The notes beneath the pieces are model-generated. The model saw only the letters and a program-made list of their open reading frames with translations. It made no database searches and was not told the DNA's origin. Below, in pieces: positions 10,563 to 28,206 of a stretch of 64,000 nucleotides of DNA; position 1 is the first letter of the stretch; each line of letters begins with the position of its first letter. The DNA is from Candidatus Nomurabacteria bacterium (GTDB lineage Bacteria > Patescibacteriota > Patescibacteriia > UBA1558 > GWA2-36-10), in NCBI GenBank assembly GCA_020632415.1, contig JACKFO010000002.1:642732-706731 (forward strand). Direction: 5' to 3'. Position numbers and translations under genes: made by a program.

Positions 10563-10688
10563 GGGTTCTGGCGATGACCTACTCTCGCAACCCTAAATGG
10601 GTTACTACCATCGGCCTTGAAGAGCTTAACTGCTGAGTTCGAAATGGGATCAGGTGTGGCCTCTCCAGTAGAACCACCAGAACTCTAT
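10563..10688 (-). rRNA. rrf: 5S rRNA
   Basis: Reverse complement reads ...CCGATGGTAGT...GAGAGTAGG..CGCCAG, the conserved 5S helices; lies directly downstream of 23S. Confidence 0.8.
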
Positions 10689-10877
10689 CGTCCTCGAAAA
10701 AATAAATTTATAAATCGAAACATCGTTTCCTAACCTAATACTATTTGATTGATCGGCGTGAATAACATCACGACACCCAATAATAATATCAAGCCAATGA
10801 AAAGTAAAACGATTTTAATCATTTAAACAATGTTTAAGAACAAAAAATTTGTATAAAAATTTCCAAAATTTTTAGTG

Positions 10878-13800
10878 GTTACTTTGATCTATTAGTACTA
10901 CTCTGCTTAATGCATTACTGCACTTATACATATAGCCTATCAACCTGGTAGTCTCCCAGGGATCTATAATGAATTCTAATCTTAGGGACAGCTTCGTGCT
11001 TATATGCTTTCAGCACTTATCTTAACCGAACGTAGCTACCCAGCGATGCCCTTGGTAGGACAACTGGTACACTAGAGGTTCGTTCCTTTCGGTCCTCTCG
11101 TACTAGAAAGGAGACCCTTCAAAATTCAACGCCCATAGCAGATAGGAGACCGAACTGTCTCACGACGTTCTGAACCCAGCTCGCGTACCGCTTTAATAGG
11201 CGAACAGCCTAACCCTTGGGAGCTTCTCCACCCCCAGGATGCGATGAGCCGACATCGAGGTGCCAAACCCTGCCGTCGCTGTGGGCGCTTGGGCAGGATC
11301 AGCCTGTTATCCCCAGAGTAACTTTTATCCGTTGAGCTTCCGCCGTCCTATATCGTACGGTCGGATCACTAACTTCTGCTTTCGCAACTGCTCGAGTTGT
11401 AGCTCTTGCAGTAAAGCTGGCTTATGCGTTTGCACGACGACTCCTGTTTCCATCAGGAGTTAGCCAACCTTTGTAAACGCCTCCGTTACATTTTGGGAGG
11501 CAACCGCCCCAGTTAAACTACCCGTCAGATACTGTCCTTGTCCCGGATTCACGGGACTAAGTTAGATTTAAAATCATACCAGGGTGGTATCTCAAGGATG
11601 ACTCCACCGCAACTGACGTTGCAGCTTCAAAGTCTCCCACCTATCCTGAACAAATATAATCCTAAATCAATACCAAATTGTAGTAAAGCTTCATGGGGTC
11701 TTTTCGTCTAGCTATGGGTAACGAGCATCTTTACTCGTCTTGCAATTTCGCCGAGTCCTTCGCTGAGACAGTCTCCAAGTCGTTATGCCATTCGTGCAGG
11801 ACGGAACTCACCCGTCAAGGAATTTCGCTACCTTAGGACCGTTATAGTTACGGCCGGCGTTCATCCGCGCTTCAGTTCAGGGCGTAAACCCCTCCCCTTA
11901 ACGTTCGGACACTGGCCAGGCATCAGCCCCTATACATCAGCTTGCGCTTTAGCAGGGACCTAAGTTTTTGGTAAACAGTCGCTTGGAGTCTTTCGCTGCG
12001 GCCCTACAAAACATAGGGCGGGCCTTATTCCGAAGTTACGGCCGCTGTTTTGCCGAGTTCCTAAGCGAAGGTTCTCTCGTACACCTGAGGATACTCTCCT
12101 CACCCACCTGTGTTGGTTTGCAGTACAGATACTACTAACTTAGCTCTAGAGGCTTTTCTGGACAAAGCTTCGCTCTTCATTGACTTTGGCCGAAGCCGCA
12201 GTCTTCTGATTGCTTTTGTGCTTAATGTTTTCCGGATTTACCTAAAAAACACACTACTAACAACCAACGCTCATAACCAAATAGCGCGAAGAAATTTCAC
12301 TCTGCGTCCCCTCATCGAAAATTAGCAGTAGGGCAGGAATATTAACCTGCTCTTCCATCGACTACGCCTTTCGGCCTCGCCTTAGGATTGCCTAACCCTG
12401 GGTCGATTCTCGTTGCCCAGGAAACCTTGGGTTTGCGGTGTCGGGGATTCTCACCCCGATTTTTGCTACTCATGCCAACATTCTCACTTCTATACACTCC
12501 ACGGCTCCTCACGGTACCGCTTCAACGCAGTATAGAACGCTCCTCTACCACTTTTATCTAAAAGATAAAAGTTCTCATCTTCGGTACTAAGTTTAGCCCC
12601 GTTAAATTATCGGCGCGAAGCGACTTGACTAGTGAGCTATTACGCTATCTTTAAAGGATGGCTGCTTCTAAGCCAACCTCCTAGTTGTATAAGTCACGAC
12701 ACCACCTTTTACACTTAACTTAGATTTTGGGACCTTAGATTGAGATCTGGGCTGTTTCCCTTTTGACCAATGAAGCTTAGCCCCCATGGTCTGACTCCTT
12801 TGAAATACGTAATGGCATTCGGAGTTTGATTGAAGTAGGTATGGACACAATGCCACCCTACTCCATCCAGTGCTCTACCACCAAAACTTAACTCAAAAGG
12901 CTAGTCCTAAAACTATTTCGAGGAGAACCAGCTATTGCCGAGTTCGATTGGAATTTCTCCTCTTACCACAACTCATCCCCTAGTGTTGCACGGCTAGTGG
13001 GTTCGGGCCTCCACGACTTGTTACGGTCGCTTCACCCTGGTCATGGCAAGCTCACCCGGTTTCGGGTCTAGTATATGCAGCATACAAAATTTATACCCTG
13101 CCTGATAAATCAAGCAAAGTATAAAGTTTGTGACGGACTATTAATCCTCGCTTTCACTGTACCTTCCTCCCGAAGGAGTTAAATAAGCTACATATAGCTA
13201 ACTCGTTGGCTCATTCTTCAATAGGCACACCGTCACCCATCCTTGTAGCAAGCTACAAGTATAGGGCTTCGATTCCTTGTAAGTATACGGTTTCAGAAAC
13301 TATTTCATCCCCCTCTCGGGGTGCTTTTCACCTTTCCCTCACGGTACTTGTTCACTATCGATCACCAAAAGTATTTAGCCTTAGCACATAGTGATGCTAG
13401 ATTCCCACAAGATTTCTCCGGTCTCGTGGTACTCAAGAAAACTATCGACAGTTGATTAATATTTTTCATATACTGGACTTTCACCATCTTTGGTCAGCCT
13501 TTCCAGACTGTTCTACTAAATAATAATCATTACTGCTCGGAACCTGTAAGTTTCCAAATGATAGCCTCTTACAACACCCGTAGATAGCATTAGACTTACA
13601 GTCATTGCATTATCTCTCACTTTCGACCGAAGTCTCCAGATCAAAATAGTTTATCTATTCTCAGGTTTAGGCTCTTCCCGTTTCGCTCGCCACTACTCAG
13701 GGAATCGAGATACTAATTAAAACTAATGACAACCGAAATTCTCAATAGTTTTAATTAGCATATTAATTCTTTCTCTTCCTCTGGGTACTAAGATGTTTCA

Positions 13801-13995
13801 ATTCCCCAGGTTACCTCCAACTAAGCTATGTATTCACTTAGTGGTTTCCGCACTTCATACGGAAGGGTTTCCCCATTCGGAAATCTCCGGCTCATAGGTT
13901 GCTTATCACCTCCCCGAAGCTTATCGCAGATTGCTACGTCCTTCATCGTCTTTTGGTGTCAAGGCATCCACCGTATACCCTTATTAGTAACCACC
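10878..13995 (-). rRNA. rrl: 23S rRNA (about 3.1 kb; modest AT-rich expansion segments, no intron ORF)
   Basis: Reverse complement of 13961-13995 is the GGTTA..AAGGG..ACGGTGGATGCCTTG 5' end; 10878-10960 matches the 3' end TAGTACTAATAGATC; conserved sarcin-ricin and peptidyl-transferase region strings visible. Confidence 0.9.
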
Positions 13996-26142: not shown

Positions 26143-26382
26143 AACAACTTAAACATTCTTACTTAAAAAAATTCTAATTAACAGAAAGATAATAACAAAA
26201 AAATGCTGATTTGGCAATAGCCTAAAGAAACAAAAAAACCCGCCTCACGCGGGAAAATATTTAACAACTAGAAAGTGACCATTTTTAGCTAAATCCATTT
26301 TAACTAAAATAAATTAGTTAATCGACTATGGTAATAAAAAAGGGTGTTGGACCTTTTTATTTTATTACACCTATCTCCTTAG

Positions 26383-27860
26383 AAAGGAGGTGATCCATCC
26401 ACAGCTTCCGCTACGGATGCCTTGTTACGACTTCACCCCTATCATCGAATTCACCTTCGTCCGACTAATGTCAGCCTTCGGGTGCCCCCGACTCTCTTGG
26501 TGTGACGGGCGGTGTGTACAAAACCCGAGAACGTATTCAACGCTGCGTAGCTGATCAGCGTTTACTAGCGATTCCAACTTCATGAGGTCGAGTTGCAGAC
26601 CTCAATCCGAACTGAGACTAATTTTGATGGGATTGGCTTCACCTTGCGGTTTTGCTACCCATTGTACTAGCCATTGTAGCACGTGTGTTGCCCAAGGCGT
26701 AAGAGCCATGCTGATTTGACGTCATCCTCACCTTCCTCCCCGTTAAACCGGGGCAGTCTCCTATGATCATTTAACATAGGATAAGGGTTGCGCTCGTTAA
26801 AGGACTTAACCCAACATCTCACGACACGAGCTGACGACAACCATGCAGCACCTGTATAGCACCTTCGAAAGAGTCTTAGTTTCCTAAGATTTGCAGCTAT
26901 ATGTCAAGCCTTGGTAAGGTTCCCCGCTTATTATCGAATTAAACCACATGCTCCACCGCTTGTGCGGGTTCCCGTCAATTCCTTTGAGTTTTAGCCTTGC
27001 GGCCGTACTTCCCAGGCGGGATACTTAAGGCGTTAGCTTAGGTAAACAACACTGGAAGGGTCGATACTTCCAATATTTAGTATCCATCGTTTACGGCGTG
27101 GACTACTGGGGTATCTAATCCCATTCGCTCCCCACGCTTTCGTCCCTGAACGTCAGGACTGTTCTAGCAAGCTGCCTTCGCTTTTGGTGTTCTTACTGAT
27201 ATTAACGCATTTTACTACTACACCAGTAATTCCGCTTGCCTCTCCCAGCCTCTAGTCAAATAGTATCTTTAGCGGTCTCGAGGTTGAGCCTCAAGATTTA
27301 ACCAAAGACTTATCTGACCGTCTGCGGACGCTTTACGCCCAGTCAATCCGGGTAACGCTCGCCACCTACGTATTACCGCTGCTGCTGGCACGTAGTTAGC
27401 AGTGACTTATTCATCAGGTACCGTCACGGATTCTTCCCTGATAAAAGATCTTTACACCCCGAAAGGCGTCATCGATCACGCGGCATTGCTCCTTCAGACT
27501 TTCGTCCATTGAGGAAGATTCTTGACTGCAGCCTCCCGTAGGAGTCTGGGCAGTTCTCAGTCCCAGTGAGACGGGCCATGCTCTCACACCCGCTACCTGT
27601 CGTTGCCTTGGTGAGCTTTTACCTCACCAACAAGCTGATAGGCCATAGGCTCCTCTCTATCCACCGGAGTTTTACATGGGAACGACTTATGTCCCCCCAT
27701 GACTATCAGGAATTATTCCCACTTTCGTAGGGTTATGCCTGAGATAGAGGTAGATTACCAATGTGTTACTCTCCCGTTTGCCATGCTGAGCAAGCTCAGC
27801 ATTCGACTTGCATGCCTTAGACATGCCGCCAGCGTTCACCCTGAGCCAGGATCAAACTCT
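26383..27860 (-). rRNA. rrs: 16S rRNA
   Basis: Reverse complement of 27841-27860 is AGAGTTTGATCCTGGCTCAG; reverse complement of 26383-26400 is the GGATCACCTCCTT 3' end; 1492R and 515 region strings present. Confidence 0.9.
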
Positions 27861-28177
27861 CAAATAAAGTTTGCACATCTTGCTAAAAGATGTGTTTGGC
27901 TCGAGTTGTTACTCGAAATATGATTGACTTGTCCAAACTTTTAGTTGGACAATAAAATTTAAAAATTGACTTATGGTTTAACTAAAAACGGTTCACTTTT
28001 TAGTTGTCAAATATTTATTTGTCAAAAAACATTGTTTTTCTTGCTTATAGATAGCTTCTAAAGTTCAAGAAAAAACAGCAATGTCCAAAGACCTTAGACA
28101 CTTCTGTTTTTTCTCGGGTGCAACTCCCTTAATTTCTTTGTAAATCAGCTACGACTTTATTTTTTTAATGCTCCCGT

Positions 28178-28206
28178 ATTTTAAAGCAAAAAAAACATTT
28201 TGTCAA
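28178..28206 (-). promoter_or_regulatory. sigma70-like promoter (TTGACA-17-TAAAAT) on the minus strand upstream of 16S
   Basis: Reverse complement reads ttgaca aaatgttttttttgctt taaaat; lies between the trmD stop and the 16S 5' end. Confidence 0.35.

Follow-up and report, generated by a model that had tools for sequence, protein, structure and literature searches.

The question raised by this locus is whether its 16S rRNA gene, which shares a strand with the 23S and 5S genes and lies far from them, is genuinely separated from them and independently transcribed, as a sequence-only reading of the window (the whole stretch of 64,000 nucleotides analyzed here) had proposed. Rfam covariance models found three full-length rRNA genes, all on the minus strand as had been claimed, and no further rRNA gene in the 64-kb window (Table 1). 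The 23S gene exceeds the length of its model by about 200 nucleotides because of expansions in domains I and II. Between the 3′ end of 16S (26383) and the 5′ end of 23S (13994) there are 12,388 bp, in agreement with the distance of about 12.4 kb first read from the sequence, and the 5′ end of 16S, which had been put at 27860, is moved to 27867 by the covariance model. The tRNA-Ile/Phe/Pro/Gly cluster (25745-26142) was recovered by ARAGORN directly 3′ of 16S on the minus strand, and tRNA-Ala(tgc) was found apart from tRNA-Ile, at 6025-6101 on the opposite strand. The 23S and 5S genes are adjacent, separated by a spacer of 191 nucleotides, and are therefore linked; no promoter or terminator match was found in this spacer, and the two genes are probably carried on one transcript.

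Table 1. Features of the rRNA locus, listed in the direction of rRNA transcription (coordinates of the window)
Feature	Coordinates	Strand	Details
16S promoter	28178-28206	-	TTGACA-17-TAAAAT, then ACGGGAG; 11/12 consensus match
16S leader RNA	27868-28177	-	~310 nt, structured
Hairpin A in 16S leader	28082-28100	-
Invariant tract in 16S leader	28065-28081	-	TTGCTGTTTTTTCTTGA
16S processing stem, 5′ strand	27973-28006	-
16S rRNA gene, complete	26383-27867	-	Rfam covariance model, 1435.6 bits, model positions 1-1533
16S processing stem, 3′ strand	26265-26298	-
Intrinsic-terminator-like hairpin	26232-26253	-	CCCGC-GTGAG-GCGGG + T7, directly 3′ of the 16S processing stem
Promoter-like site before tRNA cluster	26189-26217	-	TTGCCA-17-(TG)TATTAT
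tRNA-Ile(gat)	26066-26142	-	ARAGORN
tRNA-Phe(gaa)	25963-26037	-	ARAGORN
tRNA-Pro(tgg)	25876-25952	-	ARAGORN
tRNA-Gly(tcc)	25745-25819	-	ARAGORN
Terminator-like hairpin + T-run after tRNA-Gly	25708-25736	-	-10.3 kcal/mol
Four minus-strand genes	23507-25647	-	66-aa membrane protein, ECF sigma factor, 254-aa protein, 163-aa protein
Bidirectional hairpin	23453-23485		End of the ten-gene plus-strand block
Ten-gene block	16240-23443	+	~7 kb, strand opposite to the rRNAs
Two hypothetical genes and a membrane ORF	14486-16172	-	162 aa, 183 aa; ORF of 53 aa
Hairpin	14465-14488		3′ of the hypothetical genes/53-aa ORF
23S promoter	14367-14395	-	Perfect TTGACA-17-TATAAT, then ACGCCTA; 12/12 consensus match
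23S leader RNA	13995-14366	-	~370 nt, structured, ~90% identical to L003
SD-like sequence in 23S leader	14346-14351	-	AAGGAG
Mini-ORF in 23S leader	14301-14333	-	10 codons (MLGQLVKLKI)
Hairpin in 23S leader	14252-14272	-
U-rich boxA-like tract in 23S leader	14236-14249	-	TGTCTCTTTGAAAA
Covarying hairpin in 23S leader	14061-14088	-
23S processing stem, 5′ strands	14101-14121 and 13997-14014	-
23S rRNA gene, complete	10873-13994	-	Rfam covariance model LSU, 2548.9 bits, model positions 1-2925
23S processing stem, 3′ strands	10855-10872 and 10822-10840	-	Within the 23S-5S spacer
23S-5S spacer	10682-10872	-	191 nt, carries the 3′ strands of the 23S processing stem
5S rRNA gene	10566-10681	-	Rfam covariance model, 80.9 bits

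The segment between the 16S/tRNA cluster and 23S holds 16 called genes, ten on the plus strand and six on the minus strand, and not the ten in all that had been counted. The ten-gene block encodes an MGMT-like DNA-binding protein, two DsbA-like proteins, VKOR, a TrxB-like reductase, DsbD_TM, the N and C parts of transketolase, PGI and a 109-aa protein. Pfam matches in the segment (an ECF-type sigma factor, two DsbA-like proteins, VKOR, the TrxB-like reductase, DsbD_TM, a split transketolase and a bacterial-type PGI) confirm that a sigma factor, disulfide-bond genes and transketolase separate the rRNA genes. The 53-aa membrane ORF (14486-14644) is uncalled. TrxB and TrmD have their closest relatives among MAGs of Patescibacteria, Paceibacterota and Nomurabacteria, and an identical TrmD carries the name "Candidatus Nomurabacteria bacterium"; judged by its sequences, the host is a Patescibacterium (Paceibacteria/Nomurabacteria-like, ~35% G+C).

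Assemblies classically break or mis-join at rRNA genes, and the layout might be an artefact in which collapse or mis-joining of a canonical 16S-23S-5S operon made its genes seem separated. The window was compared with independent short-read assemblies (Logan contigs), and three of its four rRNA junctions are reproduced there at 100% identity. L001 equals window 13783-25948 and links the 23S 5′ end, its leader and 12 kb of intervening protein genes up to tRNA-Pro; the other outer junctions are confirmed by L084 (window 8528-11175: 23S 3′ end, 5S and downstream genes) and L086 (TrmD through the first 36 nt of 16S). These contigs break inside 16S (36 nt in), 23S (212 nt in) and tRNA-Pro, and the junction between the 16S 3′ end and tRNA-Ile is seen in one assembly of the exact genome, so that for this stretch (26383 to 25948) the only other support comes from relatives. 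In one related lineage, L088/L089, assembled from two JGI samples on contigs 111 kb and 75 kb long (16S identity 95.7%), TrmD is followed by 16S, the same four tRNAs, the sigma factor and then PGI, transketolase and DsbD, and no 23S lies within 8 kb downstream of 16S. In L003 (23S identity 96%), 5S-23S is preceded by a matching leader and 10 kb of protein genes, among which no 16S is found. The layout thus recurs in two related lineages, on the 16S side in L088/L089 and on the 23S side in L003, and both leaders are conserved, structured and start at conserved promoters. Mis-assembly, which had been named as what could overturn the reading, is hardly credible in view of the reproduced junctions and the relatives. 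We consider it very likely that the arrangement is genuine and conserved in the lineage, with an ancestral 16S-ITS-23S-5S operon split into three same-strand units.

Promoters had been proposed upstream of 16S (28178-28206) and about 370 nt upstream of 23S (14367-14395), and consensus matches are found at both places. Consensus promoters with at most one mismatch number 12 in the window against 0.86 expected, a count reached in 0 of 100 shuffles, and the region's best sigma-70 matches are those of the 16S and 23S promoters. Generic scans have a high background (59 promoter-like sites against 45.8 expected by chance, and 26 terminator-like sites against 16.7). In alignment A2 (four sequences), conservation starts at GGCTTGACA of the 16S promoter and is absent upstream. 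Similarly, when L003 is compared with the window, conservation starts just upstream of the 23S -35 hexamer and collapses beyond it. It continues through both leaders. The transcription start sites themselves are predictions from the sequence. Besides hairpin A, the 16S leader has three more hairpins close to the 16S 5′ end; all four occupy equivalent positions in three lineages, and three of them differ in sequence (covariation). The covarying hairpin of the 23S leader shows three compensatory base-pair changes relative to L003, as counted by eye from the alignment.

The flanks of 16S form a duplex of -72.2 kcal/mol (shuffles -37.7 ± 5.1, cross-controls -33 to -44), the 3′ strand of which is kept in L088 with changes that stay compatible with pairing. 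Local helices of the 23S stem are present and kept in L003, and the whole 23S flank duplex is no better than AT-rich shuffles (-53.1 vs -45.0 ± 5.1). The hairpin directly after the 16S stem has a stem of only 5 bp (-10.1 kcal/mol, z = -2.0). At the equal position L088 carries a GC-rich hairpin and T-run of different sequence, and this putative terminator is therefore conserved in position.

All three rRNAs and the tRNAs share a strand, NusB is encoded, and terminators can be overridden by rRNA antitermination complexes; one long transcript could then run from the 16S promoter through the tRNAs and intervening genes to 23S-5S, as an operon with passengers. Such a transcript would need to read through the conserved putative terminator (26253-26232) and a further hairpin (25736-25719), continue past the bidirectional hairpin at 23453-23485 and run antisense through the ten plus-strand genes, only to reach a 23S gene that has its own perfect consensus promoter, at which conservation begins in L003. 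We regard it as scarcely plausible. Separate promoters are supported because conservation begins at the -35 hexamers and because a single transcript would be antisense through a 7-kb block, and the proposal that 16S is transcribed independently of 23S-5S is, as a prediction, well supported by sequence and almost certainly right.

Under the split-operon explanation, the first unit would be a stand-alone 16S with its promoter (28206-28178), leader of ~310 nt, flank stem and terminator (26253-26232). The second would be the tRNA-Ile/Phe/Pro/Gly cluster under its own promoter (26217-26189), and the third 23S-5S, with promoter (14395-14367), ~370-nt leader and 191-nt spacer. The tRNA unit is the one most open to another interpretation, in which the hairpin after 16S is leaky or a processing element and the four tRNAs are mainly co-transcribed with 16S, giving two units. 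The tRNAs next to 16S could be what is left of the 16S-tRNA-Ile portion of the former spacer, tRNA-Ile(gat) being the usual first spacer tRNA, and the shortness of the terminator stem and the background of the terminator scan point the same way. Against this, the hairpin and T-run persist in L088 with a different sequence, and the TTGCCA-17-TGnTATTAT promoter-like site just downstream is kept in L088, where the sequence on either side has indels. The hairpin after tRNA-Gly shows no conservation in L088. Two units are thus unlikely, though a serious possibility, and how efficiently the hairpins would terminate is itself predicted from sequence.

In the three-unit arrangement, stoichiometry would be kept by similarly strong, possibly co-regulated 16S and 23S promoters and not by co-transcription, and each rRNA would presumably be cut out of its own flank-to-flank stem by RNase III, which is encoded nearby (33775-34476). 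A NusB-NUDIX fusion gene lies at 34483-35346 (NusB match 1.4e-35), and in each leader a conserved hairpin precedes an invariant U-rich tract, at which NusB/boxA antitermination may act. The boxA assignment of these tracts is not supported statistically: the window has 9 matches to the boxA-type pattern against 13.3 expected, which is no enrichment, and neither tract is among the matches at 2 mismatches in the window scan. We further noticed that 5 substitutions in L003 leave the mini-ORF of the 23S leader open and unchanged in length. Together with the SD-like AAGGAG that directly follows the promoter, and with the hairpin and U-run, it might form a translation-coupled attenuator that adjusts 23S-5S synthesis to the availability of ribosomes or of 16S, which, if true, would restore subunit stoichiometry after the loss of co-transcription. 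This idea draws on two sequences only, the window and L003, which lend it no support, and is very improbable.

Unlinked rRNA genes are typical of Patescibacteria/CPR (Brewer et al. 2019/2020, 10.1101/705046; Lui, Nielsen and Arkin 2021, PMC8172020), being found in 27 of 34 circularised CPR genomes (PMC8172020). Genes are called unlinked when the 3′ end of 16S and the 5′ end of 23S are more than 1500 bp apart (Brewer et al., 10.1101/705046), a distance far exceeded by the 12,388 bp at this locus. With ten plus-strand genes (16240-23443) between minus-strand rRNAs in a host that is CPR/Patescibacteria by its TrxB and TrmD relatives, the locus is of type D, "unlinked by distance", in which same-strand rRNAs have opposite-strand genes in between (PMC8172020). 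The unlinked arrangement is real and was rightly interpreted, and it is already known; the sequence-only reading misjudged its rarity, as it is published as the usual state in Patescibacteria (10.1101/705046; PMC8172020). Nothing essential differs from the published cases, which belong to the same phylum and keep the 23S-5S pair together. Those papers classified loci by distance and strand only (10.1101/705046; PMC8172020), and what is added here for one Nomurabacteria-like lineage is detail: conserved promoters, covarying leader hairpins, a 16S-specific stem and terminator, and a four-tRNA cluster that appears to be separately promoted.

The rRNA genes could still be extra or orphan copies, with a canonical linked operon elsewhere supplying most rRNA, since the rRNA scan covered a 64-kb window of a larger genome and "mixed" genomes have been described (Brewer et al., 10.1101/705046). 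Each of the three genes is complete and scores highly, and their strong conserved promoters, leaders and processing stems indicate that they are not decaying orphans. CPR genomes typically have a single rRNA copy. Most of those that have been circularised are simply unlinked (PMC8172020), and a mixed genome is, on balance, quite improbable. The separation seen here is biology and not mis-assembly, and is expected for Patescibacteria, so that our analysis serves mainly as a sanity check, with the modest added value of a base-level model of unlinked rRNA organisation in one Nomurabacteria-like lineage. Such organisms will escape methods based on contiguous 16S-ITS-23S amplicons or operon-level long reads, and rRNA-based binning cannot take 16S and 23S as neighbours.

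The locus is not a canonical rrn operon, in which a short transcribed spacer links 16S to 23S and a single promoter serves both. It resembles one (E. coli rrnH, 16S-tRNAIle-tRNAAla-23S-5S) in gene set and order on the strand, near-consensus strong promoters, long leaders with a hairpin and then a U-rich tract, flank-to-flank stems around each rRNA, and the presence of RNase III and NusB genes. Unlike it, the locus lacks a 16S-23S spacer and is predicted to lack a shared transcript, with a putative terminator for 16S and a putative promoter and leader for 23S. In Thermus/Deinococcus, 16S is transcribed apart from the 23S-5S unit, each with its own promoter and processing stem; these bacteria differ in being free-living and in having multiple rRNA copies. 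The clade is listed among those with unlinked genes (10.1101/705046). The same breakpoint between 16S and 23S, with 23S-5S kept, is found in the reduced-genome symbionts Rickettsia, Wolbachia and Buchnera, which likewise have small genomes and presumably a single rRNA copy (in part from references cited in PMC8172020). They belong to an unrelated phylum, and the split arose independently; here, in contrast to them, tRNA-Ile has remained beside 16S, and tRNA-Ala(tgc) is found elsewhere, on the opposite strand.

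Searches with Rfam covariance models found one complete copy each of the 16S, 23S and 5S rRNA genes, all on the minus strand, and no further rRNA in the 64-kb window. The distance from the 3′ end of 16S to the 5′ end of 23S is 12,388 bp, and 23S and 5S are spaced by 191 nt. The sequence-only reading had placed 16S about 12.4 kb away from 23S-5S, which agrees with this measurement. Its rRNA coordinates are right overall, except that the 5′ end of 16S is at 27867 and not at 27860. It had also named the intervening genes correctly, and its count of ten genes is right for the plus-strand block but not for the total, since 16 genes were called between 16S and 23S, six on the minus and ten on the plus strand. 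The usual second spacer tRNA, tRNA-Ala(tgc), is found in a Leu-Ala-Val tRNA cluster on the opposite strand (5924-6188, plus), about 4.4 kb past 5S and distant from both rRNA units, and tRNA-Ile(gat) remains beside 16S.

Positions of the rRNA and tRNA genes and of related features in the window
Feature	Position	Strand	Remarks
16S rRNA	26383-27867	minus	Rfam covariance model, 1435.6 bits, model positions 1-1533, complete
23S rRNA	10873-13994	minus	Rfam covariance model, 2548.9 bits, model positions 1-2925, complete
5S rRNA	10566-10681	minus	Rfam covariance model, 80.9 bits, complete
tRNA-Ile(gat), Phe(gaa), Pro(tgg), Gly(tcc)	26142-25745	minus	ARAGORN; directly 3′ of 16S
Terminator-like all-GC hairpin and T7	26253-26232	minus	Directly past the putative 16S processing stem
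Six intervening genes		minus	66-aa membrane protein, ECF-type sigma factor, 254-, 163-, 162- and 183-aa proteins
Ten-gene block	16240-23443	plus	MGMT-like DNA-binding protein, two DsbA-like, VKOR, TrxB-like reductase, DsbD_TM, two transketolase ORFs, bacterial-type PGI, 109-aa protein
RNase III gene	33775-34476
NusB-NUDIX fusion	34483-35346	minus	287 aa; NUDIX hydrolase domain C-terminal

The separation is unlikely to be an artifact of assembly. Three of the four critical rRNA junctions are reproduced at 100% identity by independent short-read (Logan) assemblies. One contig (L001), equal to window 13783-25948, takes in the first 212 nt of 23S, the leader and all 16 genes and extends to tRNA-Pro; another (L084, window 8528-11175) covers the 23S 3′ end, 5S and the genes downstream; and a third (L086) reaches from the upstream genes via TrmD to the first 36 nt of 16S. 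The fourth junction, from the 16S 3′ end to the tRNAs, is backed by relatives found in two separate JGI metagenomes, on a 111-kb and a 75-kb contig (L088 and L089, 90% identical to the window in TrmD and 95.7% in 16S). Both show the order TrmD, 16S, tRNA Ile/Phe/Pro/Gly, three extra genes and the sigma factor, with PGI, transketolase and DsbD following on the opposite strand, and 23S is absent from the 8 kb examined downstream of their 16S. On the 23S side, a groundwater-effluent MAG (L003, 23S 96% identical) carries 5S-23S, the same leader 5′ of 23S and the same protein genes over 10 kb, and 16S is absent from this stretch. Thus, the related genomes, a comparison that the sequence-only reading had suggested, show the same unlinked layout, and an assembly mis-join, the error that it had raised against itself, is very unlikely to explain the rRNA separation. 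The window has a G+C content of about 35%. Among one-genome-per-species contigs, its TrxB-like protein is closest to those of Patescibacteria, Paceibacterota and Nomurabacteria MAGs (best 78% identity); judged by sequence, the window is CPR/Patescibacteria DNA. No rRNA lies within 10 kb in 79 of the 80 genome loci fetched via TrxB, so the rRNA synteny is confined to close relatives. When TrxB was used as a protein query, no ortholog from the L088 lineage came up above 78% identity.

Rickettsia, Wolbachia, Buchnera, Thermus and others are classical cases of a split between 16S and 23S-5S. Unlinked rRNA genes have been defined by more than 1500 bp between 16S and 23S (Brewer et al., 10.1101/705046), and unlinked 16S and 23S were reported in 27 of 34 circularised CPR genomes (Lui, Nielsen and Arkin, PMC8172020). 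The latter study describes a category in which the genes share one strand, lie more than 2 kb from each other and have opposite-strand genes between them, and the window falls exactly in this category. All the testable criteria for unlinked rRNA genes in these two studies hold for the window, whereas the definition of a canonical operon does not. The arrangement is therefore already known and is no departure from the known kind; the only additions are lineage-level details, namely the leaders, a 16S unit that stands by itself and has a terminator of its own, and a separately promoted tRNA cluster.

We conclude that the genes are probably organized in three transcription units, one for 16S by itself, one for the four tRNAs and one for 23S-5S, with promoters, terminators and processing sites predicted from sequence and conservation. 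The separate promoters and independent transcription proposed by the sequence-only reading are supported: the 23S and 16S promoter sites score highest among the region's sigma-70 matches (12/12 and 11/12), and conservation in relatives starts at the −35 hexamers. In the alignment with L003, the region upstream of 23S is almost completely identical from just 5′ of the −35 hexamer to 23S and the identity collapses farther upstream; in a four-sequence alignment of the region upstream of 16S, conservation begins at GGCTTGACA. Where conservation starts is more telling evidence for these putative promoters than the consensus matches are. The predicted promoter before tRNA-Ile, TTGCCA-17-TGnTATTAT, is conserved, with indels in the flanks on both sides. 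A single transcript from 16S through to 23S is a very improbable alternative. Such a transcript must cross two terminator-like hairpins, read antisense through the plus-strand block of 7 kb and get past a bidirectional hairpin at 23453-23485.

Near-consensus promoters with at most one mismatch number 12 in the window, where 0.86 are expected, and not one of 100 shuffles reaches 12. This is an excess of about 14-fold for near-perfect TTGACA(A)-17-TATAAT promoters over the whole window, so consensus promoter prediction works unusually well in this CPR genome. In both rRNA promoters the −10 is followed by ACG and G/C-rich bases, a feature that the window's remaining consensus promoters lack, apart from one that is read as an operator. 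This exception, at 50222-50250, was rejected as a third rRNA-like discriminator, since the GC-rich stretch past its −10 reads as an inverted repeat, ATACCC-N4-GGGTAT. There, a perfect consensus promoter is directly followed by the inverted repeat ATACCC-CCAC-AGGGTAT and an 86-aa gene (49938-50250, minus), which suggests a putative autoregulated CsoR/FrmR-type metal-sensing repressor with the repeat as its operator. A candidate additional promoter within each leader (TTGACA at 14139 and at about 28010-28030) was also rejected, for poor −10s and a spacing not conserved in L003; these sequences belong to the predicted processing stems. The approximately 40 nt 5′ of the two −35 hexamers (28207-28250 and 14396-14435, minus) look alike (AATTTAgAGCTtAATTtCCAG...AAAAGGcTTGACAA), but the likeness is not significant (score 28 versus 22.7 ± 2.8 in shuffles, maximum 34) and is absent in relatives. 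It could be due to chance or to recent exchange between both promoters.

In the 16S leader, four hairpins keep their positions across three lineages. Three of these hairpins differ in sequence with their pairing preserved, and the first is followed by an invariant 17-nt U-rich tract. The 16S flanks (28006-27973 on the 5′ side and 26298-26265 on the 3′ side) form a long duplex of −72.2 kcal/mol, compared with −37.7 ± 5.1 kcal/mol for shuffles and −33 to −44 kcal/mol for 16S/23S cross-controls. At the position of the terminator-like hairpin past this stem, L088 has a different GC-rich hairpin with a T-run, and the terminator sequence itself had no match in a metagenome scan. The 23S leader, of about 370 nt, is about 90% identical in L003. 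It contains a hairpin and a U-rich tract at 14272-14236 and a hairpin at 14088-14061 with three compensatory pair changes relative to L003 (counted by eye), and it pairs with the 23S-5S spacer through two helices. The RNase III and NusB-NUDIX genes in the window make stem processing and Nus-type antitermination plausible. The boxA-type pattern was not enriched in our search and neither leader tract matched it at 2 mismatches; thus, the U-rich tracts are described only as resembling boxA. Between the 23S promoter and the leader hairpin and U-run, positions 14301-14351 (minus) carry an SD-like AAGGAG and a mini-ORF of 10 codons (MLGQLVKLKI), and in L003 the mini-ORF is open and of equal length (MLRQLIKLKL) despite five substitutions. 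That these elements and the hairpin and U-run at the leader start make up an attenuator is speculation on two compared sequences, and is rated highly improbable.

The 23S gene is 3122 nt long, compared with 2904 nt in E. coli. In the alignment with E. coli rrlH, insertions of 55 and 127 nt fall at about 226-282, one of 17 nt at about 540 and one of 48 nt at about 652 (E. coli numbering). These expansion segments (window 13132-13766) are kept in L003, whose 23S is of similar length. Group I/II introns were rejected as the cause of the long 23S, given no Rfam intron match and four short expansions instead.

The stretch that separates 5S from the next minus-strand gene (10471-10565) gave no convincing terminator. 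This 173-aa gene starts at 10470, 95 nt 3′ of 5S, and is followed by an MJ0043_C-domain gene; both might be read through from the 23S-5S unit. A separate metagenome scan found no relatives of the 173-aa protein. In the plus-strand block, two DsbA-like proteins, VKOR, the TrxB-like flavoprotein and DsbD_TM form a compact oxidative-folding cluster (16589-20224, plus), syntenic in L003. Transketolase is encoded by two ORFs that overlap by about 10 nt (20300-22070, plus), one for the N-terminal TPP-binding part and the other for the pyrimidine-binding/C-terminal part, and bacterial-type PGI comes next. The NusB-NUDIX fusion beside RNase III is also found in two relatives (L088 and L090).
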